From: Microcoleaceae cyanobacterium
GTDB lineage: Bacteria > Cyanobacteriota > Cyanobacteriia > Cyanobacteriales > Microcoleaceae
Direction of reading: 5' to 3'
Length of the DNA stretch: 29,388 nt
NCBI GenBank assembly: GCA_051652765.1
Contig: JBOFUV010000002.1
Location: 1-29,388 of the forward strand
The notes beneath the pieces are model-generated. The model made no database searches. It had not been told where the DNA came from and saw only the letters and a list, made by a program, of their open reading frames with translations. This document shows, piece after piece, positions 7,959-25,678 of the stretch; within the stretch, counting starts at the first letter, position 1, and the number at the start of each line of letters is the position of its first letter. Both the position numbers and the translations under genes were made by a program.

Positions 7959-8185
7959 AATGGGTAAAGGTTCGAGCTACTTAATTCGATGTATCCATTT
8001 TGCCAAGTGATGCCCAAAGTGTTCACAGCTTAGGCGATCGCTAGGATGAAGTTCTGATTCTTTTCGCTCGAAGTCCGTCTTAGAACTCTGTGTTGAAGAC
8101 TTATTAAAAGCAATAACCACCGACCTTAAAACTCATCCGTCTCAAGCATGGAAATAAAGAGTTCTAAAAAATGTTGGCTGAGGAC

Positions 8186-8281
8186 GAGTCGTTCTTGCCA
8201 AGAACCGGCATACAGAAGTGCATCGTGCATCTGCTGCGTAACTCCCTCAAGTAGATGAGCTGGAAGCAACATTAGAAAGCT
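8186..8281 (+). pseudogene. IS256/Mutator-family transposase remnant
   Basis: Translates ESFLPRTGIQKCIVHLLRNSLK*MSWKQH*KA, matching the IS256 motif FP..VQ.CIVHLxRNSLKYVSWK, with in-frame stops. Confidence 0.75.
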
Positions 8282-8447
8282 GGTCTCGTTTTGCAATTAA
8301 AATTGAATTTCCAGACTGTTTTTCCGTTGATTAATAAAGCTTACACAACAGTATTGGCATCCTCTTGTATTCCGGAAGTTGCTACTTGTAATCGACATTG
8401 TCCTGGTATTTCTCGATGGGATTGGCGGTCTGACTCTATCGACCTTC

Positions 8448-8493
8448 GATTGAACTTATTTTTGATTGAACTTATTTTTGATTGAACAATTTT
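8448..8493 (+). repeat. 16-bp tandem repeat, about 3 copies
   Basis: gattgaacttattttt x2 plus gattgaacaatttt. Confidence 0.85.
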
Positions 8494-8884
8494 AGAATCT
8501 ATGCCATATTGTATCGGGGTTGCTAGGTTGCGTTGTGGCCACTAGAAAGTACTAGCTATAGATGTGGGTATTAACAGTTTGTATAAGGTAACAGGCTGCG
8601 GTTGATACGACTGATTAAGCGCTGTCCTTGTTTCTTCAGACTCGTTTTAAGTTTGCTCACTGCGTAGAATGAGGTTGAATTTTTTATCCATCTGCTGGCA
8701 CTGATAAGCGCACGGCAGAGAATCACAATAGTAGACTCTCCGATAGAAAGTACTTAGAAAGCACTGGTTCTGCTGGAGCCAGAAGCGTTGTACTTCTAAC
8801 CACCCTCAATGGGGATTGACTTCCGCAAGCTGATTTGCATATTCCGTGAGATAGACAATCTTTACCCGTGAGGCTTTTGAAATT

Positions 8885-10747
8885 ATGGCAACAATCATTG
8901 AAGATTTCCTCGCTAAATCCTTATCTGAAGCAGATTTGCGTCCCAGAGGGCGGGTGTTTCCCAGTCCGATTAGCTGGAATGACCAGATTTTGTACCAGCT
9001 TTTACCCGATCGTTTTAGCGATGGCCAGGAATCTCAACGTCCTCTATATGATCGCACCAACTCTGCCCCATTCCAGACAAGTCACAAAGCCTCTTGGATG
9101 GCAGCCGGAAACAAGTTTAATGGCGGAACCCTGAAAGGTATTGAAAGCAAACTGGACTATCTACAGAATTTAGGGGTTACCACCGTTTGGATTAATCCGC
9201 CCTGGAAGCAACGCATCGATTTACAGACCTACCATGGATACGGCATTCAGGATTTTCTGGACATCGACCCCCGGTTTGGCACCCGACAGGATCTGCGAGA
9301 TTTGGTAGATGCGGCCCATGACCGGGGTATGTACGTAATTCTAGATGTAATATACAACCACAGTGGCAGTAATTGGTTCTACCGGGATGAAACCGATGGC
9401 AGCCCGAAAGAGACAATGCCCTATCGCTTCTCACCCCCCTATGGGATTCATGGCTGGCGCTCAGCTCAAGGGGAAAGCCTCCCCGAGCCTGGATCAAGGA
9501 ATGATGGTGTGTTTCCTGAAGAATTTCAAAATCCAGACTGGTACAACCGGGCTGGGATGATTACTCACTGGGAAGCGAATAGCTGGGAAGACCCGATGAA
9601 CCCATTGGTTGAATTTCGCCGGGGCGACTTTTTTGAACTACGAGACTTCAACCTAGATCGACCGGAAGTCATTGCGGCCTTGGCCCAAGTGTTTGAGTAC
9701 TGGATTGCCTTAAGTGACTGTGATGGTTTTCGGGTCGATGCCGTGAAGCATGTTTCTCCCCAAGCCTCCCGTCAGTTCTGTGATGCCATTCACGGTTATG
9801 CCCAATCAATTGGAAAAGATAACTTTTTGCTGGTTGGTGAACTCACCGATGACAGTATGGTGCGCGCTTATCTGGATATCTTTGGACGCAAGCTAGATGC
9901 AGTGCTGGATATTGTGGTTGCACCGAACCGCTTAACTTCAGTAGCTCAGGGGTTGGCCCATCCAGGGGAATTCTTCGGTCTATATGATGACAAAACCCTG
10001 GCTGGTGGCCAACGTCAATTGGGAACCTATCATGTTACTGTGATCGATGACCACGATATGTCATCTCGCCCCCGCAAAGAACGGTTTGCTGCCCATAGTA
10101 GTGCACTGCCCCATCGCTATGAGCAAGCGGCTCATGGGGTAAGCATCGTCCTGACCATGCCGGGAATTCCTTCGATTTACTACGGAACTGAACAAGCATT
10201 TGATGGCTCCCAGGACTCTCATGACTATGGCATTGAGCCAAAACATGAATTTATTGATCGCTATATTCGAGAATGCATGTTTGGTGGCAAGTTTGGAGCG
10301 TTTGAAACGGAAGGATGTCACTTCTTTGACGCGAACCATCCTACCTATCTTCGGATAGCGGCGATCGCCCGCATTCGCAATCGCCAAGATTGCATCGGCA
10401 AAGCCCTGCGTCGGGGACATCACTATTTGCGAGAAACCTCATTTTTAGATCGTCCTTTTGCCATTCCCCCAGCCGGAGAAGTCGTTGCCTGGTCTCAGGT
10501 GCTCTACATCTATGAAGTGTTGATGGCCCTGAATACCCATGGTTTGGAGAGTCGGGGGGGAATGATTACAGTCGGTCGCTCCATCCATCCCCCAGGTTCC
10601 AAGATGACAGTGCTCTATAGAAGTGATTGGAGTGATGAACAGCTACGGCATCCTCCTGAAACTGAAACCTTTCCCGTGCAGGAATGCCAGGGACGAGCGG
10701 TGGTGCGAGTTGATTTGCCCCCGTCTGGCATGGTGATCTTAGCCTAG
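8885..10747 (+). CDS. Alpha-amylase family (GH13) glycoside hydrolase, cytoplasmic
   Basis: YQLLPDRF, GGTLKGI, YHGY, DVIYNH, DGFRVDAVKH (nucleophile), VGE (acid/base), IDDHD, PSIYYGTEQ. No signal peptide. Confidence 0.93.
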   Translation: MATIIEDFLAKSLSEADLRPRGRVFPSPISWNDQILYQLLPDRFSDGQESQRPLYDRTNSAPFQTSHKASWMAAGNKFNGGTLKGIESKLDYLQNLGVTTVWINPPWKQRIDLQTYHGYGIQDFLDIDPRFGTRQDLRDLVDAAHDRGMYVILDVIYNHSGSNWFYRDETDGSPKETMPYRFSPPYGIHGWRSAQGESLPEPGSRNDGVFPEEFQNPDWYNRAGMITHWEANSWEDPMNPLVEFRRGDFFELRDFNLDRPEVIAALAQVFEYWIALSDCDGFRVDAVKHVSPQASRQFCDAIHGYAQSIGKDNFLLVGELTDDSMVRAYLDIFGRKLDAVLDIVVAPNRLTSVAQGLAHPGEFFGLYDDKTLAGGQRQLGTYHVTVIDDHDMSSRPRKERFAAHSSALPHRYEQAAHGVSIVLTMPGIPSIYYGTEQAFDGSQDSHDYGIEPKHEFIDRYIRECMFGGKFGAFETEGCHFFDANHPTYLRIAAIARIRNRQDCIGKALRRGHHYLRETSFLDRPFAIPPAGEVVAWSQVLYIYEVLMALNTHGLESRGGMITVGRSIHPPGSKMTVLYRSDWSDEQLRHPPETETFPVQECQGRAVVRVDLPPSGMVILA

Positions 10748-10753
10748 CCAAAA

Positions 10754-10818
10754 CGACTGAGGTGGCTTTTCTCTATGCAAGCATATCGACCGCTTGCCTA
10801 CTGGGGGCTCCTCAGACG
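10754..10818 (+). other. Extended stem-loop just after the GH13 stop codon
   Basis: Nested pairings cgactgagg/cctcagacg, ggctttt/gggggct (G-U rich) and gcaagc/gcttgc. No U-tract. Confidence 0.5.
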
Positions 10819-11122
10819 AAGTATCCCAGGCAGAAAGATCAGCATTTGTCTGTTTCCTTGAATTGAAACTGTTGGTAGCCCTAAACGGTAATGATGTTTT
10901 GTGGGGGACGAAATCTCTCTTAAGGGGACAGTGCCCCCTGACCCTCACTCATCTTGACTATCAGACCGCTACCAAACGGTTAAATGTTGTGGCAATTTCA
11001 ATTGTAGTGAGATACGAGGGGGTTTGGGGACTTCTTCCCTAAGCAGGGGAGCGCTCCTGCATCCCACTTATCAGTGCCTCAATTGCGTAGAAAATGTTGT
11101 AACTAACCAAAAGGAGTTAAAA

Positions 11123-12298
11123 ATGTCCAGGAACTTACTCGATCAGCTCAGGGAAGTGACCGTTGTGGTCGCCGATACCGGAGATCTTCAAGCCATCAAG
11201 AAATTTGCTCCCCGAGATGCCACAACCAACCCTTCCTTGATTGCGACAGCGGCTCAGATGCCGGAATATCGAGAGATTGTGGATGAGACACTAATCCAAG
11301 CTAAGCAGGATTCTGGCTCAGGCGCAACTGAAGCGGAGATTATATCCTTAGCCTTTGCCCGTCTGGCAGTCTCCTTTGGCAAAAGGATTCTGGACATTGT
11401 GCCGGAGCGTGTTTCTGTCCAGGCTGATCCGCGCCTATCTCATGATACTGAGGCCACCATCAAGCAAAGCCGCTATCTGCTCTCTGAATTTGAAAAGGCA
11501 GGAGTTCCCCGCGAGCGGATTATGATCAAAATTGCATCGACCTGGGAGGGTATTTGTGCTGGCAAAATTTTAGAAGCAGAAGGCATTCAGTGCAATATGA
11601 CGCTGCTGTTTGGGATTCATCAGGCGATCGCCTGCGCCGAAATTAAGGCCACACTCATCTCCCCCTATGTCGGACGCATTTTTGACTGGTACGTTAAAGA
11701 AACAGGTAAGCAGTACGAGGGAGCTGATGATCCGGGTGTTCAGTCTGTTACACGGATCTACAACTATTACAAAAAATTTGGCTACTCAACGGAAGTCATG
11801 GGAGCGAGCTTCCGTAATATTAGTGAAATTGTTGAACTAGCGGGCTGTGACCTGCTGACCATTTCCCCTAAACATCTGGCCCAGTTGGAAGAAACAACTG
11901 GAGAATTGACCCGCAAGCTGGATGCTGGTAAGGCTGCTACCCTGGAGATTGAAAAAATTTCTATTGACAAAGCCGCCTTTGACCAGATGCACACCAGCGA
12001 TCGCATGGCATCTGAAAAGCTGGCTGAAGGCATCAAAGGGTTTAGTAAATCTCTAGAATCCCTAGAAAAATTCCTGGCCAATCGTCTAGCTCAACTAGAA
12101 GGGGGTGCCAAAGTCGGCACTGCGGCCACCGATATTTTTTCCGCTTACGACCTAGACGGGGATGGCTTCATCACTCGCGAAGAATGGATGGGATTAGATG
12201 CTGTATTTGATGCTCTTGACCTAGATGGCGACGGTAAGATCACGCCCGAAGAAATCGGCGCAGGGCTGGGAGCTACCCTGGAGATGGCAGGCATCTAA
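11123..12298 (+). CDS. tal: Transaldolase-family protein (TalB type with two C-terminal EF-hands) carrying FSA-type active-site residues
   Basis: AAGGAG RBS before the ATG at 11123. VVADTGD, DATTNPSLI, Schiff-base Lys in IKIASTWEG, CNMTLLF, MGASFRN. EF-hands DLDGDGFITREE and DLDGDGKITPEE. Atypical VSVQADPRLS and ISPYVGRI. Confidence 0.92.
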   Translation: MSRNLLDQLREVTVVVADTGDLQAIKKFAPRDATTNPSLIATAAQMPEYREIVDETLIQAKQDSGSGATEAEIISLAFARLAVSFGKRILDIVPERVSVQADPRLSHDTEATIKQSRYLLSEFEKAGVPRERIMIKIASTWEGICAGKILEAEGIQCNMTLLFGIHQAIACAEIKATLISPYVGRIFDWYVKETGKQYEGADDPGVQSVTRIYNYYKKFGYSTEVMGASFRNISEIVELAGCDLLTISPKHLAQLEETTGELTRKLDAGKAATLEIEKISIDKAAFDQMHTSDRMASEKLAEGIKGFSKSLESLEKFLANRLAQLEGGAKVGTAATDIFSAYDLDGDGFITREEWMGLDAVFDALDLDGDGKITPEEIGAGLGATLEMAGI

Positions 12299-12323
12299 TT
12301 GCAGAAATGAACTGACCGGGAAG

Positions 12324-12361
12324 AGGGGAGGCGACCTAGCAGCTTTCACCTAGCCTCCCCT
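12324..12361 (+). terminator. GC-rich hairpin after tal (terminator or mRNA stabiliser)
   Basis: aggggaggc ... gcctcccct inverted repeat with no clear U-tract. Confidence 0.45.
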
Positions 12362-12401
12362 TCACCAAGCCCATCCACAAACAATCTGGATTTAGATCCC
12401 A

Positions 12402-12738
12402 ATGAGCTTAACTCTATATTGTCTCCGTCACGGGGAAACTCCTTATAGTCAGACAGGGGCTTACCGCAGTAGAAGTTGTAAGTCGTGCCCTATTGGTTCT
12501 AGCAGAGATTAAGGCCAAATTCTCGGCTGGCAATATCCTGATCGTCTCCCATAAGACGACGATTCGGATTATTCTTTGTAATCTACTGGGGATCGATTTA
12601 GGTCGCTATCGAGATCGTCTGGAAATGCGAGTAGCTTCAGTAAGTGTCATCAGGTTCAGTTCTTATGGCCCTTTGCTCCAACGCCTAGGCGATCGCACTT
12701 ACCTGAATGAAGCATTGCAAGACCGCCAGGAGGCTTAA
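12402..12738 (+). pseudogene. Histidine phosphatase (phosphoglycerate-mutase-like) pseudogene with internal deletion and frameshift
   Basis: ATG 12402 gives MSLTLYCLRHGETPYSQTGAY (RHG motif). At about 12463 the sequence switches frame to TAVEVVSRALLVLAEI...NILIVSHKTTIR (second catalytic His motif). The middle of the domain is absent. Confidence 0.85.
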
Positions 12739-12858
12739 TGAATTACTCAACAGGAAACTAGAAACTAAAAATTAGTCCCGCAAAAAGGATATAACTTTGA
12801 GTTGAGATAGAGCTGTTGAACTCTACCAGATATTATTGTTAGTAATGGAAGATTAGTC

Positions 12859-13968
12859 ATGATTAAAACCACCATTTTTCCAGGACGCTATGTTCAGGGG
12901 AAGGACGCTAGAAAAAAGCTCAGCCAAGAGTTATCTCGGTATGGAGCTAAGGGACTACTCATCTGCGATTCCTTTGTGTACGAGAAGATCCTCCCGGATT
13001 TCGAACCTTATATGCAGGATGGAATCCAGGTTGTTGTCGAAAAATTCGATGGTGAGTCTTCAGATGAAGAAATTAATCGTTTGCTCCTTGCAGTTCATCA
13101 AGCACAGGCTCATTTCATCGTTGGATTAGGGGGTGGCAAAGCCATAGATACTGCTAAGGCAGTGGCCCATGGAGCCAAACTACCCGTTGTTATTGTCCCC
13201 ACGCTTGCTGCCAGCGATGCCCCCTGTAGTGCTGTGTCTGTCATCTATACTCCCGAGGGTGAGTTCAAGCGCTACTTACTCATGCCTCAGAACCCGAATC
13301 TGGTATTGATGGACACACAGATTGTGACTAATGCACCGATACGCTTTCTGATTGCTGGCATGGGGGATGCCCTTGCCACTTGGTTTGAAGCAGAATCCTG
13401 CATGAGAAAATATGCTCCTAATATGACTGGAGACCTGGGATCTATGTCAGCCTATTCATTGGCCAAGCTGTGCTACGACACGCTGATGGAATACGGGTTA
13501 GCTGCAAAAACAGCCTGTATAAATCATGTAGTAACCCCTGCCCTAGAGCGGATTGTTGAAGCGAATACGCTGCTCAGTGGTATCGGCTTTGAGAGTGCGG
13601 GGCTAGCCGCTGCCCACGCTATCCATAACGGCATGACTGCACTTGAGCAAACTCATCCCTACTTCCACGGTGAGAAGGTTGCCTTTGGAACTCTAGCTTC
13701 GCTGTTTTTGACTGACAAGCCTACTGCAATCATCGACGAAGTTTACAGTTTCTGTGAGACAATTGGTTTGCCAACTACATTAGCTGAACTTGGACTAGGT
13801 GAAGTCAGTGATCAGGCGCTAATGAAAGTAGCCACAGCTTCATGCAAGCCGGGAGAGACTATGCACAATGAACCAACACCTGTGAATCCAGATATGGTAT
13901 TTTCGGCCCTTAAGGCAGCAGATGCAGAAGGGAAAAGCCGTCGCTCGATTCTAGCAAGTAGGTGCTGA
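12859..13968 (+). CDS. gldA: Glycerol dehydrogenase (family III metal-dependent polyol dehydrogenase)
   Basis: FPGRYVQG N-terminus, GLGGGKAIDTAK, PTLAASDAPCSA, GMGDALATWFEA, EANTLLSGIGFESAGLAAAHAIHNG, HGEKVAFG. Confidence 0.95.
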   Translation: MIKTTIFPGRYVQGKDARKKLSQELSRYGAKGLLICDSFVYEKILPDFEPYMQDGIQVVVEKFDGESSDEEINRLLLAVHQAQAHFIVGLGGGKAIDTAKAVAHGAKLPVVIVPTLAASDAPCSAVSVIYTPEGEFKRYLLMPQNPNLVLMDTQIVTNAPIRFLIAGMGDALATWFEAESCMRKYAPNMTGDLGSMSAYSLAKLCYDTLMEYGLAAKTACINHVVTPALERIVEANTLLSGIGFESAGLAAAHAIHNGMTALEQTHPYFHGEKVAFGTLASLFLTDKPTAIIDEVYSFCETIGLPTTLAELGLGEVSDQALMKVATASCKPGETMHNEPTPVNPDMVFSALKAADAEGKSRRSILASRC

Positions 13969-14078
13969 AATGCGACACGGTGCATCTCAGCAAATCGACT
14001 GGCTTGAGCAAGGGTAAGTTTTTCCTGTTGAAAGAGCATGATAGCGATTCCTTGACGTATTTCTGCCTCAGTCATGCG
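13950..14078 (-). pseudogene. UPF0175-family protein fragment
   Basis: MTEAEIRQGIAIMLFQQEKLTLAQASRFAEMHRVAFQHLLA is typical of cyanobacterial UPF0175 proteins. Both ends are missing and the fragment runs into the antisense strand of gldA. Confidence 0.7.
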
Positions 14079-14219
14079 GAACAGAGAGGTTTCTGGCTCA
14101 GTTGAGAGAGAGCTTGCACGGTCTGCACTGGCAGTTCTTTTGGCTGAGAGAAAGTAGGCGATGCTGGTCTTTTGGCAAAAACAGCAGAAGGTGATCCTAT
14201 CAGTGATGATCTCGCTTAC

Positions 14220-14410
14220 TTTGGGGAAGTGAATGCTTTGACATTTAGCCCCGATAGAACAATAGTTGCTAGTGGCGGTGACGATGGCAAAGTAAGACTG
14301 TAGGATGTAAAAAATAAAGCACAAATAAGTGAGTTATCGGGGCATGACAAGCCTGTGATGTCTATAAGCTATAGCTCCAACGGAAAATCACTAACTAGTA
14401 GCAGCAAAAT
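14220..14410 (+). pseudogene. WD40-repeat protein fragment
   Basis: FGEVNALTFSPDRTIVASGGDDGKVRL*DVKNKAQISELSGHDKPVMSISYSSNGKSLTSSS. The Trp of the WD dipeptide is a TAG at 14301. Confidence 0.85.
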
Positions 14411-14568
14411 TACCCTCATAAATAAGGGTGTGAGTCCCCAGCCCTTGGTCGCCTCCTAATCACACCGACAAACATCTCAATCAAAAGCAACAAGGAGAAT
14501 CGCAGCGATTGTGACCTACAACAAGACTTTTAAAACACCCTCTTCCCTAGATCTGCCGTGCTTGCAAA

Positions 14569-15015
14569 TTAGACAGATATTACCTGACTAGAGAGATCCT
14601 TGACCAACACCGACCACAGCCCCTCAATTTCAATAACTAGGTCAGGAGGCGGATCATTTCTCAGATCAATGTCTAACTTGCCTTGAACACGAGTTTCATT
14701 CTGAATGTAGAAACATTCATCAGCTTCCTTGCCCACTTGCTTCGGTCGCGATCGCCAAGTTGTTGACTTTAAGCCCCGGATCTCCAATCCCAATTCCTCT
14801 GAAAGAATCACGACTAACCTGGCCAACGTCCAACTGTAGGTTTCATGTTCGGGCAGCGGAGTCATGAGTTCAAGGGTTCCTTTGTAGTAGGTGAAGCGAG
14901 GGGTTGATCGCTCTGCAAAAATAGTTAAAAGTTGCTCATAAATTTCCCAACTGATATCGTGGAGAACTAGTCGAGAATTAGTTGAGTTTTGTAGTGGAGG
15001 AGTGACCTGAATCAT
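14569..15015 (-). pseudogene. Uma2 (DUF820) family endonuclease, 3'-truncated
   Basis: LHDISWE.Y...GTLELMTP.PEHE...EADECFYIQ...PPPDLVIEI, followed by unrelated sequence below about 14624. The C-terminal part is missing. Confidence 0.8.
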
Positions 15016-15129
15016 GTTGAGGGATGTCCCACTGGAATTTTTTTAAATTAAAGATGTCTTCGCAGATTCAGAATGAGATTAACTGAGATTAGGATCAAGA
15101 TCAAAGTCGGTAGGGATTGTTGCAAATTC

Positions 15130-15705
15130 TTACCAGATCAACTCAAAACTAAATACAAAACCGGGTAGGACTTCCTCGCCCGAGCCTGTAGCAGGAGAGT
15201 TTAAAATTTCAACGGCTTGTCCAGGTCGATAGATCTCAACGTTTTTCGCTTGGGTATCGATCAGCCAACCTAAACGAGTGCCATTTTCGATATATTCGGC
15301 CAGTTTCTCTTGAATTGTTGTGAGGCGATCGCTCGGAGACCGTAACTCAATAACAAAGTCGGGGCAGAGGGGTACGAACTTTTTTTGCTGTTCAGGGCTA
15401 AGAGCTTTCCAGGACTCTAGGTTCACCCAGGCTGCATCTGGCGAGCGATCCGCACCGTTGGGGAGCTTGAATCCAGTAGAGGAGTCGAAGGCAATTCCCA
15501 AATCTTGATGGTTACGGCTCCAGGCTTGCAACTGGTAAGCAATTTCAATATTCCGGTTACCCGTCTCTCCTCCGGTTGGTGTCATGATCACTACATCTCC
15601 GTTCGTATTCCGTTCAAATTTCAAGTCGCGATTGTTCTGGCAGAGTTGGAAAAATTGCTCGTCAGTTAATTCAATGGATTCCAGATTCAAGGTTAAGTTT
15701 GTCAT
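15130..15705 (-). CDS. Uma2 (DUF820) family endonuclease, intact
   Basis: FERN..G...IMTPTGGETG, FDSSTGF.LPNGADRSPDAAW, LCPDFVIELRS, EYIENG.RLGWLID. Confidence 0.93.
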   Translation of the reverse strand: MTNLTLNLESIELTDEQFFQLCQNNRDLKFERNTNGDVVIMTPTGGETGNRNIEIAYQLQAWSRNHQDLGIAFDSSTGFKLPNGADRSPDAAWVNLESWKALSPEQQKKFVPLCPDFVIELRSPSDRLTTIQEKLAEYIENGTRLGWLIDTQAKNVEIYRPGQAVEILNSPATGSGEEVLPGFVFSFELIW

Positions 15706-15742
15706 CTTGCTAATCTACTGCAGATTTTGAACGTACCCACTC

Positions 15743-16089
15743 TCACAATTGCTTCATTCTTTCATTCTCGCCTTTCTGCAAATCAACCTGGACAAAGTTA
15801 GTTAAATCTTTGACCGAAAACGTTCCAAAGGCCAGACTGGTTTCTGATTCAATATAGTCTTCATCTTCACGCAGAAGATAAATGGTTAATTCTCCCTCTT
15901 TCCAACACCAGACTTCTGGAATCTTTAATTCAGAATAAACTGCCATTTTATCAATTGAAGAATGAGTTAAGTCAATTTCAATAACTAGGTCAGGGGTGGA
16001 TCATTTCTTAGATCAATTTCTAACTTGCCGCGAACGCGAGTTTCATTCTGAATGTAGAAACATTAATCAGCTTCCTTGCCCACTTGCTT
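15743..16089 (-). pseudogene. Uma2 family endonuclease, C-terminal half with stop and frameshift
   Basis: KQVGKEAD*CFYIQ..., a 1-bp deletion near 15995, then DLVIEIDLTHSSIDKMAVYSELKIPEVW. The 5' half is missing. Confidence 0.8.
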
Positions 16090-20437: not shown

Positions 20438-23400
20438 CTAGACAAGTTTTGTCGGGTGGCAGTTCTGAATCAAGTTTCGCGATAACCTGGCCCGGTTCAA
20501 AATTTCTGATTCATTGAGGGGTGTGGGCAGATGGCAAGACAAACACAGGGGAGCCAGAATTTTAGTAGGAGTCGTTAGACTTTCTGAAACGGCATAGAAC
20601 TGTCCTTTATCCAGTCTGGCAATATCCTGTCCGCTTCCCCCCCGTTGACGCAATTGTTCTTGAATCACCTCAATTGCCGCTGGGGAGTTGGCCCGTCCAT
20701 AAAACTGGGTTGAACAATTGGCGATGATGTTATGGTCAATACTCTTGGGAGCCTGGGTTGCAAAGATAATGCCTAAACCATACTTGCGGGCTTGAGCCAC
20801 AAGACGGTTCAGGCTGGCTTTACACGGTGTCGATGTCGATCCTGCGGGAGCAAAATCCTTGGCTTCATCCAGAACCAACAACCCCCGCAGAGGAGCATGA
20901 CTGGGAGCAGGATTTTTCTTGATCCAGGTAAATAGAGTCATGAACAGTTGGTTCAGAAAGTGTTGCTGGGTTTCGAGACCAGGCAGACCTACAAAGTTGA
21001 GGATGGAAACCCGAGTTTTCCCGGAGGGTTCGCCTAAGCCCAACAAAATCGCTGGGTCTAGCGCTGAACCACTCTGACGCAGGAGGGGATTATTTAAAAT
21101 TTCGGCCCTGAGATTGTCTGCCATGGCTTGAGCTTTTTTGTCGGCATCTGCAATCCCTCCACCTGCTTCAGGAGGCAGATCAGACAGTAACTCAATGAAA
21201 TCAAGCAACCGCCCTCCTCCGTGATGAGCAAAGTAAATTAGAGCTGCTTTGAGCACACCTCGTTTGAGAATTGCGGTTTGAGATCTGCCCTGGGCGACAA
21301 TGTCCTGAAGGGTGTCTCGAGCCATATCAGCCGCCTGATCCAGTTCATCCGAATCGTTGGCAACGGCGGCTAAATCCGGCAACGGCTCTAGAGTTAACGG
21401 ATTCCCAGATTCGCGTCCCGGAGTCCAGACCAAGGCTTGGCTGTGCTGATGATACCGTTCAGCTTGGGCTTGGTCTTGGGAATTCCACTCTGCTGGTGGC
21501 TGCGGCCAACGATCCCCCAGACGCGCCAAGTCATTGGCACAGTCAACTACAATGGCAGGAATCCCCAAAATCACCGCTTCCTCAACTAACCGCCTGACCA
21601 ACACTGTTTTTCCCGTACCACTCCCAGCCAGAATCACTGTGTGTTTCGTGAGATTCTGCACTGGAATCGAGACCGTTTCTTTCGTCTGTTGACCAATCAG
21701 GCGAGCTCCAATCGGGAGGAGAAATGAAGGAGATGGTTGATCTTCAGGGGCTTTATTAAGTTCAGGGGCTTTAGATTCAGAGACATTAGGTTCAGGAGCT
21801 TTAAATTCAGGAGGAGGTTGAATTTCTGACATCCTGGCCGAAATCTGAGTAGAAGTTGGTATAGTTCCCGATGGCACAGCGGCCCGGTGAGAATTAACAC
21901 TTTCTGCCTCAAATAGCCAAGTCACAGCCTTTTGAAGAAAGTCCAGTTGGGAAACAGGGCGGCGATCGCGCAGCCAAGCTTCCAAGCCAGGATCTCTGCG
22001 GTTCTGAATTTCCTGTAGGGCAACTAAGGTTCGCAACTCATCTTCAGTCGGACGAACGAACAATCCGCCCCGACGCTGAAAGTCTTGAGTCAGATTCTGG
22101 GTGGCAGTTCCGTTGGGAATTCCATAGGTGCGAACAATGATTAACCTGCGAAAACCGAGAGAACGGTCGATGCCTGAGGCTGTCAGGGCTGCTTTCAAGC
22201 GAGATTGATAGGCCGTCGCATTTGTCCGTTGCAGGGCTCGCAGGCAAAGGTGTTTCTCGCGATCGCCTTGACGATGAAAAATCGACTGAATGCGCCCATG
22301 TAACGGGGGATAACGGCCAGAAAAATGAGTTTCAATGATCACCTCTGGGTCGTCCAAGATTGGATTTTCTTTCACCAGCAACTCACAGACCATTTTGAGC
22401 AGAGTTCCTAACCCTTGCTCTTCATTATTTTCCTCTAGCAAATGACTTAACTGTGCCTGGTGTTTTGCGGTTTCAAAGATTTCATCCAGACGCTGGGTTG
22501 AGATGGTCTCGTCTAGACTGGGTTGATCCGGATCAAAATTCCTGAGTTCTGTGATCTGTTGCGTTGATAAACACCGTTCGCGATGGTTGTGGCACAGTTG
22601 TAGAATTTTTCTGGGATACTTTCCTTTGACCGCTTCAAAAAATTCAGGATGAATTGGCCAAGTTTCATACGGAGGTACAAAGTGAACCCGCTGATAGGCA
22701 TCTTGAATGCGTAACTGGATAATTTCCGCAATGGCATTTGCTGTATTCATTTCTTTTAAAATCATGGCTTCTTGAAAGCGATCTTTAAAAGACTGAACTA
22801 CTTCGCTGATGAGAATTTCCCAGGTTTTCTTCAGACATGAAACTACAATCAATGTGCGACAGGTCTGATCCCGTAAAGCCATCAATCCCCCGCCAATTCC
22901 CTCAATAATTGATCTGGAAACCCGCTGTTCTTCGGACAGATCGGTATTAGCAGCTTGGTCGGCAATAAAGTGATGTTGGCTAATAATAGAATCTAACTGA
23001 TCGAAAGCAAGAATTGTAGGGCTCCGCAAGTTCATTAGCCAGGAAAGTCCCTCTACAATCTCACTCAAACGACTCACAGAAGTTGTGGCAAATCCATAAT
23101 CTGTCTTTTGTGTTTCATCAATTCCTAAACCCTGAAGCCAGTTATATCCCACTCCTGACAGCTTGAAACTAGTAGAATTGAGCAGAAATAAAGCCCGAAC
23201 TACATCCTGAAATTTAATTGCCAATGTTCGATCAATTTTGATCAGGGTTTCAAGAATTTTGACGACACATTTGCCTATAGTCTCAAATTTAGCTGGAGCC
23301 AACTGCTGTGGGGAGACTCGAATTCTAGATCGGGTCATTAGAAAGGCTATAAGTTTTTGAAATTGGGGAATGCCATCTGCTTCAACTTCCTGCAAAGAGC

Positions 23401-23743
23401 TAAGATAGCCCTGCAAAACAGTTTGCCAAAACTGATGCACATCGGTCATATCTACCAAGATAAAAGCCGCATCGTTAACCAACGTATACTGCCGAATTGC
23501 GGCCAAAAAATGGGTTTTTCCAGCTCCAGGCTCCCCAATAATGACTCGACCTAGGGGGGAACTCGAATTCTTGGCTTGCTTCAGTTTTTCTAGATCATTC
23601 TGGATTGTTTTTCGTTCTCGTTCGTGTAAAGTTTTGACATCAGAAATTGAATCCCGCCACACACTTTTAATGTGCATTGTCCAGTCAAAGTCAATTTCTT
23701 GCAGGGCTTGGAGGGCAAGTTCTGGCTGAATTAAATCTGTCAT
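20438..23743 (-). CDS. Double P-loop ATPase: N-terminal AAA+-like domain plus C-terminal HerA/FtsK-like (DUF87-type) domain
   Basis: Walker A GEPGAGKT (aa 70-77) with ILAFDQLD (about aa 248). Second Walker A AGSGTGKT (aa 706-713), Walker B LVLDEA (about aa 959) and HerA-type ARKYGLGIIFATQ (about aa 985-997). Confidence 0.88.
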   Translation of the reverse strand: MTDLIQPELALQALQEIDFDWTMHIKSVWRDSISDVKTLHERERKTIQNDLEKLKQAKNSSSPLGRVIIGEPGAGKTHFLAAIRQYTLVNDAAFILVDMTDVHQFWQTVLQGYLSSLQEVEADGIPQFQKLIAFLMTRSRIRVSPQQLAPAKFETIGKCVVKILETLIKIDRTLAIKFQDVVRALFLLNSTSFKLSGVGYNWLQGLGIDETQKTDYGFATTSVSRLSEIVEGLSWLMNLRSPTILAFDQLDSIISQHHFIADQAANTDLSEEQRVSRSIIEGIGGGLMALRDQTCRTLIVVSCLKKTWEILISEVVQSFKDRFQEAMILKEMNTANAIAEIIQLRIQDAYQRVHFVPPYETWPIHPEFFEAVKGKYPRKILQLCHNHRERCLSTQQITELRNFDPDQPSLDETISTQRLDEIFETAKHQAQLSHLLEENNEEQGLGTLLKMVCELLVKENPILDDPEVIIETHFSGRYPPLHGRIQSIFHRQGDREKHLCLRALQRTNATAYQSRLKAALTASGIDRSLGFRRLIIVRTYGIPNGTATQNLTQDFQRRGGLFVRPTEDELRTLVALQEIQNRRDPGLEAWLRDRRPVSQLDFLQKAVTWLFEAESVNSHRAAVPSGTIPTSTQISARMSEIQPPPEFKAPEPNVSESKAPELNKAPEDQPSPSFLLPIGARLIGQQTKETVSIPVQNLTKHTVILAGSGTGKTVLVRRLVEEAVILGIPAIVVDCANDLARLGDRWPQPPAEWNSQDQAQAERYHQHSQALVWTPGRESGNPLTLEPLPDLAAVANDSDELDQAADMARDTLQDIVAQGRSQTAILKRGVLKAALIYFAHHGGGRLLDFIELLSDLPPEAGGGIADADKKAQAMADNLRAEILNNPLLRQSGSALDPAILLGLGEPSGKTRVSILNFVGLPGLETQQHFLNQLFMTLFTWIKKNPAPSHAPLRGLLVLDEAKDFAPAGSTSTPCKASLNRLVAQARKYGLGIIFATQAPKSIDHNIIANCSTQFYGRANSPAAIEVIQEQLRQRGGSGQDIARLDKGQFYAVSESLTTPTKILAPLCLSCHLPTPLNESEILNRARLSRNLIQNCHPTKLV

Positions 23744-23746
23744 TGT

Positions 23747-24445
23747 TCAATATAAGTTCAATGTATCAATATAAACAAAATACCGTTTGTCATGACCTCC
23801 CATATCGAGGGCTGCCTGCTCATCCTCAGGGCCTATACTCCTGGGATCTTCCATGGACATCAGGGATAATTTTCCAGCACTCTGCATTCGGCGTAATTCT
23901 TGATCAATTTCATCGCGGGGGCAATCTTGCAACTGTTGACGGAGCTTGGATAATCGCAGGCCAATTTCAGAATTTTGATTCCCCAGCTCTCGGTAAACTT
24001 TCAAAATTCTGGCTTCAAGCGGCTCGGATAGATTCAGGGGGTGCTCTAAGTGTTCTAACGTCTCTGAATTCTTCGAGTGATCTCGGATTTGCTCCGAGGG
24101 TTTAGAGGTCTCTGGCTGTTGTCTCAGGACTTCTGCTAGAGAAATGTTATGAGATTTCAAATGGGTTCCCAGTTTAATCAGTAATGCTTGTAAAGGCTCT
24201 ACGGCCAACTGAGATTTGGATAACGTCACCCCATAATTTTCTACAGCCCAATCCCAGGCCCGATCAGTTAAGACGATATGCATAGATCGCGATCGCTTTT
24301 CTAGGGTAATCAATCCTGCGTGTTCAAGGGGCTTGCGTTCAGCTGGACTCAGATTTGGCTTGACTTTAGAAATTGCAGGTTCTTCTCCTGTGATTAACAG
24401 GTTCCATAGCGCTAAAGCTTGCTTCGGAGTGGACTGAAAGCTCAT
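23747..24445 (-). CDS. Hypothetical protein, probably two winged-helix-like domains
   Basis: 232-aa ORF, 3 bp from the ATPase start. Patterns LEHAGLITLEKR...IVLTDRAWDW and LRLSKLRQQL..PRDEIDQELRRMQ.AGKLSL are wHTH-like (inference). Confidence 0.75.
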   Translation of the reverse strand: MSFQSTPKQALALWNLLITGEEPAISKVKPNLSPAERKPLEHAGLITLEKRSRSMHIVLTDRAWDWAVENYGVTLSKSQLAVEPLQALLIKLGTHLKSHNISLAEVLRQQPETSKPSEQIRDHSKNSETLEHLEHPLNLSEPLEARILKVYRELGNQNSEIGLRLSKLRQQLQDCPRDEIDQELRRMQSAGKLSLMSMEDPRSIGPEDEQAALDMGGHDKRYFVYIDTLNLY

Positions 24446-24454
24446 GACGACTTC

Positions 24455-25678
24455 CTAGGTTCTGAACGGTTGACTGCGACGAAACTTTACAACTTCACGA
24501 ATTTTGTTGAGGGCGATCTCAACATCATTCACCACTTCCTGATGGGGCAGTCGGAGCACAAGATACCCACTGATTAATAATTCATAATCCCGATGGCGAT
24601 CCTCAGTAAAGGCAAAGAGAAGGGAGTGATGCCGATAGCCATCAATTTCCACTACCACCTTACCATCTGACCAGAGCAAATCAACCCAATACCATCGCCC
24701 ACAGCAGGTTTGCACCCGTTGATTGAATCCAAAAAGTTCGGCCAACTCACCATCCCGAGACAAGGATTGCGCCAACAGTTGCTCCCCCGGACTACAGGGA
24801 TGAGGTCTACCTTGGATCGGCCAAAGCAGATGACGAGATTCTTCAAGGGTTTCTGGGTTAACGGTTTCTGAGTTAAGCGTTTTTGAGTTAAGAGTTACTG
24901 GGTTAACAGTTACAGGCTCAAGGCTTCCTGGTTTAACGGTTTCTGGGTTAACAGTTTCTGAGTGAGCGGTTTCTGGGTTAAGGATTGGTTCAACGGTTCC
25001 TAAGTTGGGTCTTGAAAAGTCCGTTGCTGCAAGGTTTGACCCTTGGGAAGAGAGAGAAATTGCACCGTACCGCACAGAATCCAATTCTGAACAGTTTGAT
25101 AGTTCCTTTGGAATCAGAACCGCAATACTTGCACCTGTTGATTGCGCCAACCAAGTGGCGGCCTGAGCAAAACTGAGGAGTTTATGGGGTTGAGGATGGC
25201 GATCGCCCATTGCCAAAAGGATCACCAGACTAAACGGGTCAATTGCCAAGGCCAGTTGAGCAACCTGAACCGTTCGAGGAAAATTCGGAAAAATCGGCAA
25301 CTGATTCATTTGACAAGCCTTTACCGCCGCTTTCAGCCAAGGGATAGAGGCATTCTGCCGAGTTGTAGGTAACTCCTGAAGCTTGAAGTGATTGAGCAGA
25401 TCGTCTTCCAGGAGGCTATTGTCCAAGAAAGGCGCTGTAACCGCTTGCCCATACCAGAATGGCCAGAGCCTAAGGGCTGCCTGAGCTAGGGCTTGTAGCA
25501 ATTCTTCTAAAAGAACTTTATGATTGGGCAGAACGTCCCAAGTCTGAATCATGCCCTTTCCCTGATCCAAGTTCGCAAGTTCAGCAACTTCCAGGGAGGC
25601 GATGACTTCATCCACCTCGGTACAGAGAAATGCTCTTACGTCACCGGCGGGAATTTGAGACAGAAACTGACTCAACAT
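24455..25678 (-). CDS. DUF559/Vsr-like endonuclease domain protein with long uncharacterised N-terminus
   Basis: C-terminal SPGEQLL...FNQRV...WVDLLW...VVEIDGYRHH...DRHRDYELLISGYLVLR (D333, E344). Confidence 0.85.
   Translation of the reverse strand: MLSQFLSQIPAGDVRAFLCTEVDEVIASLEVAELANLDQGKGMIQTWDVLPNHKVLLEELLQALAQAALRLWPFWYGQAVTAPFLDNSLLEDDLLNHFKLQELPTTRQNASIPWLKAAVKACQMNQLPIFPNFPRTVQVAQLALAIDPFSLVILLAMGDRHPQPHKLLSFAQAATWLAQSTGASIAVLIPKELSNCSELDSVRYGAISLSSQGSNLAATDFSRPNLGTVEPILNPETAHSETVNPETVKPGSLEPVTVNPVTLNSKTLNSETVNPETLEESRHLLWPIQGRPHPCSPGEQLLAQSLSRDGELAELFGFNQRVQTCCGRWYWVDLLWSDGKVVVEIDGYRHHSLLFAFTEDRHRDYELLISGYLVLRLPHQEVVNDVEIALNKIREVVKFRRSQPFRT
24846..24980 (-). repeat. 9 x 15-bp degenerate tandem repeat encoding a pentapeptide (NPETV-like) linker
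   Basis: Units such as acggtttctgggtta and acggtttctgagtta recur with exact 15-bp period on the + strand. Confidence 0.9.

Follow-up and report, generated by a model that had tools for sequence, protein, structure and literature searches.

Gene organization at the locus

The window, which is the whole 29,388-nucleotide stretch of cyanobacterial DNA analysed here, carries four co-oriented genes on the + strand at positions 8885 to 13968. The first-pass annotation had reported a GH13 gene, a transaldolase paralogue, a histidine phosphatase since deleted, and gldA in this region, and all four elements were confirmed, the phosphatase as a remnant. The transaldolase paralogue is designated Tal*. 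The features are as follows.

8885..10747, + strand: GH13 glucan hydrolase (alpha-amylase family), 620 aa; Pfam PF00128 Alpha-amylase, E 1.4e-48
11123 (ATG)..12298, + strand: Tal*, EF-hand TalB-type transaldolase paralogue, 391 aa; NF008965, TIGR00874
11420..11422, + strand: Gln100 codon, at the catalytic Glu position; VSVQADPRL vs VSTEVDARL
11528..11530, + strand: Lys136 codon, IKIASTWEG motif, kept vs 3hjz, 2cwn, 1f05
11666..11668, + strand: Tyr182 codon, at the active-site Phe position; ISPYVGRI vs ISPFVGRI
12131..12268, + strand: C-terminal EF-hand calcium-binding loop pair; Pfam EF-hand_5, EF-hand_1, EF-hand_6
12402..12738, + strand: decayed histidine-phosphatase (His_Phos_1) gene, remnant
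12859..13968, + strand: gldA, NAD-dependent glycerol dehydrogenase (dihydroxyacetone (DHA) + NADH <-> glycerol + NAD+), 369 aa; NF006941

Spacers of 375 bp and 560 bp lie between the window genes, and co-transcription is therefore not evident. The block is flanked by Uma2-family and UPF0175 genes, and neither terminal repeats nor a transposase was found at its bounds. It is absent from both same-genus genomes. The GH13 gene has 67-69% DNA identity to its same-genus homologues, and the neighbouring chlH has 79-82%.

No N-terminal hydrophobic signal sequence was seen by inspection in the window GH13 protein. The solved structures closest to it belong to bacterial alpha-amylases, cyclomaltodextrinases and neopullulanases. 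Orthologues with 77-84% amino acid identity lie directly 5' of Tal* at loci L116, L117 and L210. GH13 (dN/dS 0.044) is linked to Tal* at 4/9 loci, compared with 0/80 canonical transaldolase loci, and is an accessory part of the module.

The histidine phosphatase gene was found decayed in the window into an N-terminal piece, a frame break and a C-terminal piece. The N-terminal piece begins at ATG 12402 and comprises 22 residues including the RHGE motif, which were judged homologous by inspection and not by alignment. Residues ~23-119 are gone after the frame break. The remaining C-terminal part of ~93 residues (12457-12735) matches an intact 212-aa homologue over residues 120-212. The gene is intact (212 aa) at L113 and L115. 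It decayed independently at other Tal* loci, leaving remnants with different breakpoints at L117 and L112 and nothing at L111.

Tal* carries an aldolase-type residue pair on a TalB scaffold

Tal* scored 658.9 bits against NF008965 (NCBIfam cut-off 550) and 446.9 bits against TIGR00874, but only 73.7 bits against TIGR00875 (cut-off 245.95). Gap-free alignments to 3hjz, 2cwn and 1f05 bore out the signature of fructose-6-phosphate aldolase (FSA) that had been noted earlier, with Gln100 at the conserved Glu and Tyr182 at the Phe. These positions presumably correspond to Glu96 and Phe178 in E. coli TalB numbering, and we take Lys136 in IKIASTWEG to be the Schiff-base lysine, as established for class I aldolases and transaldolases. 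Alignment to TalB structures showed that Tal* retains the substrate-binding motifs (Asp, Asn, Lys, Asn/Thr, Ser, Arg and Ser/Arg), with the phosphate-binding Arg and Ser motifs the same as in those structures. Ser180, just before Tyr182, is also retained, and Tal* natively has Ser at the position equivalent to Ala129 of FSA.

The TalB double variant E96Q/F178Y is an engineered enzyme with the same residue swaps as Tal*; our literature search found no open paper on the TalB E96Q variant. The archaeal transaldolase variant in PDB 4xz9 has Gln and Tyr where wild-type 3s0c has Glu and Phe. According to the accessible text of PMC3962226, F178Y increased the fructose-6-phosphate (F6P) aldolase activity of TalB 70-fold, to an efficiency close to that of wild-type FSA with DHA as the preferred donor, and it was selected and measured in the aldol addition direction. 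The same text states that Ser at the Ser180 position favours DHA over hydroxyacetone in both TalB F178Y and FSA. FSA itself handles F6P and DHA better when Ser stands in place of Ala129, as given in the accessible parts of PMC3962226 and PMC7767278. With these engineered variants as a model, we infer that Tal* may have F6P aldolase activity. TalB F178Y and 4xz9 share the scaffold and residue swaps of Tal* but are laboratory mutants, whereas Tal* is a natural clade with purifying selection, 10 further substitutions, EF-hands and a dedicated gene context.

Relatives of Tal* were drawn from a database of 5.8 billion proteins, and the best 120 were used. Gln/Tyr was present in the 16 closest relatives and Glu/Phe in the remaining 104; judging from this comparison, the pair is not a chance variant. 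Twelve diagnostic substitutions at otherwise invariant positions are common to the Tal* clade, and the 10 besides Gln/Tyr are clustered on active-site strands. Purifying selection on the module genes is strong (dN/dS 0.035-0.084 overall, 0.035-0.075 for Tal* and 0.038-0.084 for gldA). The 12 fixed substitutions, which include the exact engineered pair, together with dN/dS <0.1 indicate, at the level of sequence, a maintained new function.

Tal* is a rare extra copy derived from cyanobacterial transaldolase

The Tal* clade comprises 17 sequences, all cyanobacterial and monophyletic (SH-aLRT 100), and in the tree it sits inside cyanobacterial EF-hand TalB. This nesting supports the earlier proposal that cyanobacteria built the enzyme from their own transaldolase, convergently with FSA. 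The EF-hand pair of Tal* (residues 370-415 when the ORF is numbered from the TTG at 11024) is also found in canonical cyanobacterial TalB, and the window genome's own canonical paralogue, on contig C19, carries the same C-terminal extension. Canonical cyanobacterial EF-hand transaldolases (NF008965; the C19 copy) are equal in length to Tal* and 67-72% identical to it, but have Glu/Phe in 80/80 loci and 104/104 proteins.

A motif scan detected Tal* in 3/185,579 species genomes. Further carriers were the window's own genome (G000) and G236, the latter through another search. Culturable strains with Tal* include Aphanothece hegewaldii CCALA 016 and Chroococcus sp. FPU101. Tal* is rare among cyanobacteria, and both the Tal* and GldA clades span several cyanobacterial orders. 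A canonical Glu/Phe transaldolase was also present in 4/4 carriers checked (G000, G041, G042 and G043), so Tal* is an extra copy. G236 likewise appears to have an additional Tal, judged by a match of 71% identity.

Tal* is linked to a gldA of probably foreign origin

The window gldA scored 517.1 bits against NF006941 (cut-off 336). GldA also scored 428 bits against a bifunctional L-1,2-propanediol/glycerol dehydrogenase model and 396 bits against a glycolaldehyde reductase model, both below cut-off. Nine Tal* loci were compared, of which eight are informative for gldA, L116 ending at a contig end. At 6/8 informative loci (window, L111, L112, L113, L115 and L117), gldA lies directly 3' of Tal* on the same strand. 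True gldA was near canonical tal at 0/80 loci, and a Tal/FSA homologue lay within 6 kb of other gldA genes at 0/56 loci. The two informative loci without adjacent gldA, L114 and G236, count against the interpretation preferred below. In G236, a gldA of the same lineage is on another contig than Tal*; at L114, a PfkB-family sugar kinase and an inositol-monophosphatase-family protein take the place of gldA.

The tal*-gldA linkage is kept across four cluster types while all other neighbours vary. The conserved unit is tal*-gldA and not the four-gene set that the first-pass annotation had put forward, as GH13 is linked at 4/9 loci and the phosphatase is intact in 2. The expected co-occurrence of Gln/Tyr TalB homologues with gldA was therefore borne out by the neighbourhood survey, while that with the phosphatase and GH13 was only partial.

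All GldA proteins from Tal*-bearing sources (7/7) form one clade (SH-aLRT 99), nested (98) among GldA from Anaerolineales, Thermotogales, Bacteroidales and Desulfobacterales, which are mostly anaerobes. Because they form one clade within these non-cyanobacterial sequences, gldA was probably imported once. The gldA of Tal* carriers is thus probably foreign, from an anaerobe-type heterotroph GldA clade, and the view of gldA as a native cyanobacterial gene does not agree with the tree. Few cyanobacterial genomes (5/401) encode a GldA that passes the family cut-off.

Tal* clusters contain glycogen, glycolysis and lactate genes

At other Tal* loci, glgP, gap, eno, D-ldh, lctP and pyk are added. D-LDH, LctP and Eno occur at 5/9, 4/9 and 3/9 Tal* loci, compared with 0/80, 0/80 and 1/80 canonical loci. 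The operon glgP-GH13-tal*-eno-ldh-lctP of G236 is tight: its intergenic distances are 7, 12, 44 and 66 bp, and two genes overlap by 10 bp. Another cluster has the order gap-tal*-hp-gldA-eno-ldh-lctP. Pyruvate kinase, glycogen phosphorylase, phosphoketolase and GH13 glucanase are near Tal* in L116, L117 and G236. The Tal*-cluster GAPDH is similar to glycolytic GapA/GapC enzymes. Canonical tal loci often have similar neighbours (glgP 12/80, histidine phosphatase 16/80, gap 14/80, pyk 8/80, xfp 7/80), and this part of the glycolytic context is therefore ancestral; unlike Tal* loci, they have no true gldA, GH13, D-ldh or lctP alongside. The pyk, glgP, D-ldh and lctP partners lie in other genomes and not beside the window Tal*.

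The window genome has PFK. The shunt is therefore not needed to bypass a gap, and is not "PFK-independent" in the sense of a missing PFK. No match to Dak1 (DHA kinase) or glycerol kinase was detected in this genome, which is 99.97% complete, leaving Tal* and GldA as the only evident link of DHA and glycerol to central metabolism. A further Tal/FSA-family protein of this genome, short and of a widespread type, likewise has Gln/Tyr at the two positions; this protein could be the real DHA-forming enzyme, which counts against our reading of Tal*. For D-LDH, the window genome gave a best match of 32% identity and hence no close homologue, which also counts against the preferred interpretation.

Comparison with E. 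coli systems

E. coli FsaA and FsaB, whose active-site residues are Gln59 and Tyr131, carry out the chemistry proposed for Tal*, F6P <-> DHA + glyceraldehyde-3-phosphate (GAP), through a Schiff-base Lys and a Gln/Tyr site. The statement that E. coli fsaB neighbours gldA proved correct: in K-12 the two genes are 10 bp apart on the same strand, and the ptsA-fsaB-gldA array places an aldolase gene directly beside gldA, as in tal*-gldA. However, E. coli FSA has ~220 aa and belongs to another transaldolase subfamily than the 391-aa, TalB-type Tal* with its EF-hands, so their likeness is convergent. The partner of fsaB is a PTS protein, whereas those of Tal* are glycogen and lactate genes. In the literature, E. 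coli FSA is described as binding F6P poorly and as an enzyme of enigmatic physiological role, and both points count against the preferred interpretation.

An engineered, "new-to-nature" E. coli pathway from glucose via F6P and DHA to glycerol works, according to the accessible text of Guitart Font & Sprenger 2020 (PMC7767278). As described there, it uses FSA(A129S) and GldA with DHA kinase and glycerol kinase removed, and G000 matches neither kinase. That pathway relies on deletions and overexpression in a strain without PFK and Zwf, whereas the putative Tal*/GldA route appears to be a naturally formed set and occurs with PFK present.

Discussion

The best reading of these results, which we consider somewhat probable, is that a natural F6P aldolase and GldA form a branch of glycogen fermentation. 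Tal* would be a duplicated cyanobacterial TalB-type transaldolase turned F6P aldolase, in which the general acid-base Glu became Gln and the neighbouring Phe became Tyr. The Tyr could protonate the enzyme-bound DHA intermediate, so that DHA would be released rather than held for transfer. Tal* would cleave F6P to DHA and GAP, and GldA would reduce DHA to glycerol with NADH. In darkness or anoxia, F6P derived from glycogen would be drained through this branch, sparing the ATP cost of PFK, with hexose phosphate supplied by GlgP and the GH13 enzyme. GAP would pass through lower glycolysis to pyruvate, yielding 2 ATP and 1 NADH. As GldA would reoxidise the NADH from GAP oxidation, conversion of glycogen-glucose to glycerol and pyruvate would be redox-balanced. 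In other clade members, the D-LDH and LctP of the same cluster may turn some pyruvate into exported D-lactate; making glycerol and lactate together would need an additional source of reductant for redox balance, which counts against this reading. Since all window-cluster enzymes are reversible, we infer the direction of flux from the pyk, glgP, D-ldh and lctP found beside Tal* in other genomes, and the dark or anoxic trigger is a proposal. This reversibility, the presence of PFK, the wide spacers of the window cluster and the ancestral share of the glycolytic context likewise count against the reading.

The opposite direction is fairly unlikely. In such kinase-free assimilation, GldA would oxidise imported glycerol to DHA and Tal* would join DHA and GAP to F6P, with GAP coming from the Calvin cycle or lactate (LctP, D-LDH, Eno, Gap) and F6P going to glycogen or the pentose-phosphate pathway. 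The enzymes of both the window cluster and the gap-tal*-hp-gldA-eno-ldh-lctP clusters are reversible, and Tal*/GldA would be the sole glycerol entry because the genome has no glycerol kinase or DHA kinase domain match. The accessible sources further describe TalB F178Y in the addition direction (PMC3962226) and, as a subject of study in E. coli, the use of glycerol and DHA through GldA and FSA. However, the pyruvate kinase, glycogen phosphorylase, phosphoketolase and GH13 at L116, L117 and G236 act in catabolism, and the cluster GAPDH belongs with the glycolytic GapA/GapC enzymes. None of the 9 Tal* loci was seen to adjoin a glycerol facilitator or transporter gene, and GldA has its nearest relatives in the mostly anaerobic Anaerolineales, Thermotogales, Bacteroidales and Desulfobacterales. 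The context as a whole (D-ldh, lctP, pyk, glgP, GapA-type gap, no DHA or glycerol kinase) favours a fermentative role over glycerol assimilation.

TalB scaffolds bind sedoheptulose-7-phosphate (S7P) as well as F6P. Tal* might be an S7P aldolase (DHA + erythrose-4-phosphate) or use a hydroxyacetone or glycolaldehyde donor, with GldA as a propanediol or glycolaldehyde reductase, tying the pentose-phosphate pathway rather than glycolysis to a reduced C3/C2 product. S7P binding, the sub-cut-off GldA scores, the gldA-free L114 with its PfkB-family kinase and inositol-monophosphatase-family protein, and the broad donor range given for FSA in the accessible literature agree with this. It is nevertheless improbable, as Tal* keeps the Ser180 that favours DHA over hydroxyacetone (PMC3962226, accessible text), its phosphate-binding Arg and Ser motifs are unaltered, and the genes specifically found with it concern glycogen and lactate, not the pentose-phosphate pathway. 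We regard it as very improbable that the two genes lack functional coupling, with Tal* being a transaldolase that is degenerate or simply a variant and gldA co-travelling with it on a horizontally mobile island. The absence of the block from same-genus genomes, the GH13 and chlH identities, the flanking Uma2-family and UPF0175 genes, and the spread of both clades over cyanobacterial orders would fit such an island, but the 12 fixed substitutions with the engineered pair, dN/dS <0.1, a linkage that outlasts all other neighbours in four cluster types, the retention of both genes in G236 though unlinked, and the lack of terminal repeats or a transposase at the block's bounds argue against it.

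Our literature search found no paper on a natural Tal*-GldA branch. The glycogen fermentation branch proposed here suggests an undescribed route by which these cyanobacteria could turn their glycogen reserves into glycerol and lactate.

Active site of the transaldolase paralogue

The window carries a block of four genes on the + strand, in which Tal* denotes the EF-hand TalB-type transaldolase paralogue.

Four-gene block in the window
8885-10747, + strand: GH13 gene, 620 aa (Pfam Alpha-amylase, E 1.4e-48)
11123-12298, + strand: tal*, TalB-type transaldolase, 391 aa, two C-terminal EF-hands (NF008965, TIGR00874)
12402-12738, + strand: broken histidine-phosphatase (hp) gene in two halves (PF00300, homologue alignment)
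12859-13968, + strand: gldA (NF006941)

The GH13 protein matched the PF00128 catalytic domain over residues 38-454 (166.7 bits; gathering score, 22), and every NCBIfam equivalog scored under its cut-off. GldA scored 517.1 bits against NF006941 (cut-off 336), with residues 1-362 aligned to positions 1-363 of the 367 in the model. Tal* exceeded the cut-offs of NF008965 for cyanobacterial EF-hand TalB, subfamily 1 (658.9 bits; cut-off 550), and of TIGR00874 (446.9 bits; cut-off 396.2). It scored 73.7 bits on TIGR00875 (fsa_talC_mipB; cut-off 245.95) and does not belong to the short fructose-6-phosphate (F6P) aldolase (FSA) subfamily. Members of that subfamily are short single-domain proteins of about 220 aa, whereas Tal* has 391 aa and an EF-hand tail.

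Gap-free alignments with the solved structures 3hjz, 2cwn, and 1f05 showed that Tal* keeps VVADTGD, TTNPSL, IKIASTWEG, CN.TLLF, ISP.VGRI, and MGASFRN. Thus, the Schiff-base Lys motif and all sugar-phosphate binding motifs are unchanged compared with solved TalB-type structures. The catalytic general acid-base Glu is absent, being replaced by Gln100 (VSVQADPRL vs. VSTEVDARL in the structures), and the active-site Phe is replaced by Tyr182 (ISPYVGRI vs. ISPFVGRI). These positions correspond to Glu96 and Phe178 of TalB. FSA is characterised by a Gln where transaldolases have the Glu and by a catalytic Tyr where they have the Phe, in line with the F178Y work in PMC3962226 and with 4xz9, a Gln/Tyr variant in the PDB. 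The "FSA signature" that the first-pass annotation had assigned to this paralogue was borne out by Gln100 and Tyr182 in these alignments.

According to PMC3962226, TalB F178Y gained 70-fold in F6P aldolase activity, with an efficiency similar to that of FSA and a preference for dihydroxyacetone (DHA). A Ser before the Tyr (TalB Ser176, FSA A129S) favours DHA and F6P, as stated in PMC3962226 and PMC7767278. The native sequence of Tal* at this site is Ser-Pro-Tyr. Judged from its residues, Tal* is a TalB-family member that fails both catalytic-residue tests for transaldolase, and by analogy it probably works like FSA from outside the FSA subfamily. All database names seen for Tal* proteins were plain "transaldolase", so the active-site change is invisible to automatic annotation.

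The Gln/Tyr clade

We then compared Tal* with its best 120 relatives among 5.8 billion proteins. Gln/Tyr was found in each of the 16 nearest (76-100% identity), and Glu/Phe in each of the other 104. Twelve positions split the two groups almost perfectly (A42T, D79A, T99V, E100Q, V101A, A103P, K115Q, Y123F, L134M, H156Q, L159M, and F182Y), several of them on active-site strands. A maximum likelihood tree was built from 95 of 227 distinct sequences. No Gln/Tyr row was left out; 12 canonical rows were selected by choice, and from the other rows every third was taken. The 17 Gln/Tyr rows formed one clade with an SH-aLRT of 100, which was also 100 after removal of the 12 diagnostic columns. This clade sits inside cyanobacterial EF-hand TalB, apart from the canonical paralogues that its host genomes carry. 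These alignments and the tree indicate that the Gln/Tyr form is a defined clade and not a one-off.

A canonical transaldolase was also present in all four carrier genomes checked, and two same-genus genomes had the canonical gene alone. When genome contigs were searched with the Tal* protein, the best 600 matches listed included canonical Glu/Phe genes only. We discarded the idea that Tal* arose by a recent duplication of the canonical tal in its own genome, as the two share 68% identity and branch apart in the tree. The dN/dS of Tal* was 0.035-0.075, and the gene is therefore under strongly purifying selection.

To estimate rarity, genomes were scanned with a DNA pattern (S.Q.D.R, a fixed 222-nt spacing, and ISPYVGRI) for which exact spacing and motif were required. 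It matched 3 of 185,579 species genomes (Synechococcales C42_A2020_086, Aphanothece hegewaldii CCALA 016, and Chroococcus sp. FPU101) and four metagenome contigs; the window's own genome lies outside the scanned set. These counts are lower bounds, because a further carrier genome (G236), found by a separate genome search, was missed by the pattern. A looser pattern with the Tyr alone retrieved four more TalB-type genes with a Phe to Tyr change, all in non-cyanobacterial MAGs (a Beijerinckiaceae, an uncultured Alphaproteobacteria, a Cellvibrionaceae, and an unclassified MAG).

TalB-type genes with Phe to Tyr
L213:2961-3956
L216:6602-7531
L217:1-546 (Cellvibrionaceae)
L219:6581-7549

The catalytic Glu was kept in the three genes whose alignment reaches the site; the Cellvibrionaceae gene is truncated before it. 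No gldA was found within 7 kb of the four genes. They may be natural single-step variants of the F178Y type or assembly errors.

Gene neighbourhoods of Tal* and canonical transaldolase

We surveyed the neighbourhoods of nine Tal* loci and 80 canonical tal loci.

Gene order at the nine Tal* loci (Dldh, D-lactate dehydrogenase; xfp, phosphoketolase)
Window: GH13-tal*-(hp remnant)-gldA
L117: FAD oxidoreductase-glgP-GH13-tal*-(hp remnant)-gldA
L116: xfp-Dldh-glgP-pyk-hisphos-GH13-tal*, contig end 314 bp beyond
L111: tal*-gldA
L112: gap-tal*-(hp remnant)-gldA-eno-Dldh-lctP
L113: gap-tal*-hp-gldA-eno-Dldh-lctP, lctP split
L115: gap-tal*-hp-gldA-Dldh-lctP
L114: tal* divergent from a PfkB-family kinase gene and an inositol-monophosphatase-family gene; gldA absent within 10 kb
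L210 (G236): glgP-GH13-tal*-eno-Dldh-lctP, gaps of 7, 12, 44, and 66 bp and a 10-bp overlap

The first-pass annotation had called for a survey of whether Gln/Tyr TalB homologues occur together with gldA. We found gldA directly downstream of tal* and on the same strand in six of the eight informative Tal* loci, vs. none of the 80 canonical loci. A two-gene module of the fsa-gldA type, adjacent, on the same strand, and recurring across genomes, is thus present at these six loci. In G236, a gldA from this lineage (78% identity) is found on a separate contig. In the larger clusters, the 2-hydroxyacid dehydrogenase scored best on D-lactate dehydrogenase models, the permease scored best on LctP, and the GAPDH resembled glycolytic GapA/GapC enzymes. 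The lactate permease of Chroococcus sp. FPU101 (L113:3149-4815, - strand) is split into two overlapping ORFs of 388 and 233 aa, and that of Aphanothece hegewaldii is intact (557 aa).

The canonical loci span 1.6 to 17 kb, many of them cut by contig ends, and within these spans a true gldA was found in 0/80. The single match was a 33%-identical Fe-ADH in one locus (L015). GH13, D-ldh, and lctP were likewise found in 0/80 each, and eno in 1/80. Other genes were shared with the Tal* clusters: glgP in 12/80 (mostly 42-460 bp downstream), a PspA/cobC-like histidine phosphatase in 16/80, GapA-type gap in 14/80, pyk in 8/80 (mostly Nostocaceae-named records), and xfp in 7/80. The window's own genome has glgP after its canonical tal (C19:36763-40672) and a phosphatase homologue beside xfp and eno (C48:12513-18291). 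Since glgP, hp, gap, pyk, and xfp often accompany canonical tal, the Tal* loci owe part of their sugar-catabolic context to the ancestral tal neighbourhood. The partners specific to Tal* are gldA, GH13, D-ldh, and lctP.

The hp gene of the window is a remnant. Its ORF holds positions 129-193 of the 194 in PF00300 only, with no complete catalytic core in one frame. Twenty-two N-terminal residues with RHGE are kept out of frame with the C-terminal part, and after the frame loss the sequence restarts at a point that matches residue 120 in an intact homologue of 212 aa. An intact hp of 212 aa was found in L113 and L115 only. Remnants with three different breakpoints lie in the window (12402-12738), L117 (11127-11429), and L112 (10972-11100), and nothing is left in L111. 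To judge from these breakpoints, one member of the cluster seems to have been lost several times independently. With hp intact in only two loci, we ruled it out as a core part of the module.

Origin of gldA and of the block

Relatives of the window GldA were encoded at 59 loci. The cyanobacterial ones belonged to three Tal* genomes and to Geminocystis (50% identity). The nearest others came from MAGs of Anaerolineales (75%), Thermotogales (71-72%), Desulfobacterales (71%), and Bacteroidales (68-69%). No Tal/FSA gene lay within 6 kb of any of the 56 non-Tal* gldA loci. In a tree of 63 sequences, from which three short rows had been dropped, the seven GldA proteins from Tal*-bearing sources formed one clade (SH-aLRT 99) nested among those heterotrophs (98). 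Other cyanobacterial GldA proteins (genomes G004, G177, and G090, and Geminocystis) were placed elsewhere. The GldA family cut-off was exceeded in 5 of 401 sampled cyanobacterial genomes, and the remaining matches were mostly a lower-scoring Fe-ADH paralogue (250-290 bits). The picture suggested by the trees is that gldA was imported once and then inherited together with Tal*.

Both gldA and Tal* are absent from the two same-genus genomes. The GH13 homologues of these genomes lie on other contigs and share 67-69% DNA identity, vs. 79-82% for chlH just downstream of the block. These data fit a horizontal arrival of the block from a source like L117 (83-85% aa identity). The boundaries of a mobile element were not found: no terminal repeats lie around the block, and the repeat search gave short, weak repeats only. 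The flanks encode UPF0175 and Uma2-family proteins.

Within the window, the spacers between the genes of the block are 375 and 560 bp. A scan of 8300-14400 gave nine promoter-like and four terminator-like sites against shuffle means of 8.0 and 5.6, so there was no excess. Rfam gave no matches at the gathering score across the whole window. Several further features were observed around the block.

Further features of the window
8141-8193: 53-bp stretch upstream of GH13, matching at least seven contigs of the same-genus genome G002 at 83%
11016-11050: 31-35-bp stretch in the GH13-tal* spacer, matching three contigs of the same-genus genome G001 at 89-94%
13812-15946, - strand: UPF0175-domain ORF with its 3' part overlapping the gldA end; next to it, two Uma2-family (putative restriction endonuclease-like) ORFs, one seemingly truncated (148 aa); and a further short ORF
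20438-25678, - strand, adjoining chlH: 1101-aa HerA/DUF87-like ATPase, DUF559-domain protein, and an ORF that matched no family; together they may form a defence-type island

A Uma2 gene is also found near Tal* in L111.

Metabolic setting and proposed route

The window's own genome is 99.97% complete and encodes one PFK, which rules out the block as a mere filler of a PFK gap. No match was found in it for a Dak1-domain DHA kinase or a glycerol kinase. Since both kinases lack a match, GldA would be the only evident outlet for DHA made by Tal*, and Tal* would be the only evident entry for glycerol oxidised by GldA.

In the proposed route, Tal* would split glycogen-derived F6P into DHA and glyceraldehyde-3-phosphate (GAP), with no ATP spent. 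GldA would reduce the DHA to glycerol, reoxidising the NADH from GAPDH, and GAP would yield pyruvate and two ATP. Conversion of a glucose unit to glycerol and pyruvate would be redox-balanced, and lactate formation would require extra reductant. We infer F6P cleavage by Tal* by analogy with engineered variants, and the direction of flux from partners that are not adjacent in the window. Our tentative proposal, which we doubt slightly more than we believe, is that a few cyanobacteria ferment glycogen by an off-textbook route. A TalB-derived F6P aldolase, with the Glu to Gln and Phe to Tyr swaps also arrived at in protein engineering, would split F6P ATP-free, an imported GldA would make glycerol, GAP would give ATP and D-lactate, and the set would move between cyanobacterial orders as a transferable catabolic cluster.

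The same genome encodes a short Tal/FSA-family protein of 213 aa (C54:14303-14941, + strand; L004:1498-2139) with Gln/Tyr at the equivalent positions. Of two archaeal structures, the Gln/Tyr variant 4xz9 gave a better alignment with this protein than did wild-type 3s0c, and the protein scored under every NCBIfam cut-off (TIGR00875: 156 vs. 246 bits). The protein was found in 31 of 41 related genomes, including ones that lack gldA; Gln/Tyr was read in the copy of the window's genome. It may be another DHA-forming enzyme, not linked to gldA. Its distribution also makes it a candidate for an uncharacterised FSA-like enzyme that is widespread in cyanobacteria.

Relation to known systems

The closest known systems are the fsaB-gldA array of E. 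coli, engineered TalB and archaeal transaldolase variants, and an engineered E. coli glycerol pathway. The adjacency of fsaB and gldA in E. coli, to which the first-pass annotation had appealed, was confirmed. In PMC7767278, E. coli lacking PFK and Zwf grew on glucose via FSA(A129S). The same route with gldA overexpression and deletion of glpK and dhaKLM gave glycerol at about 70% of theoretical yield. There, the authors call the pathway "new-to-nature" and the native roles of fsa "enigmatic". In the literature outside subscription journals, neither a TalB-type F6P aldolase from cyanobacteria nor a cluster of tal with gldA was found to be described, and no open paper came up on an E96Q variant of transaldolase. 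PMC12997750 mentions glycerol only in connection with glpK and glpD.

If the proposal is true, the "new-to-nature" pathway of E. coli is a natural one, and FSA-type chemistry gains a first clear physiological role. Tal* would be an independent natural replay of the engineering of transaldolase into aldolase, with a swap of the acid-base residues, and the ten further fixed substitutions could reveal how nature tuned the aldolase switch. For the engineering of phototrophs, the system could provide an aldolase scaffold that already prefers DHA, as well as a native route to glycerol. With tal* set among glgP, GH13, gap, eno, D-ldh, lctP, and gldA, the clade points to a possible role for FSA-type enzymes that can be tested directly. 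The proposal predicts that such cyanobacteria release glycerol when they ferment in darkness or anoxia, and that they have an ATP-free split of hexose phosphate parallel to PFK, phosphoketolase, and the oxidative pentose-phosphate route.
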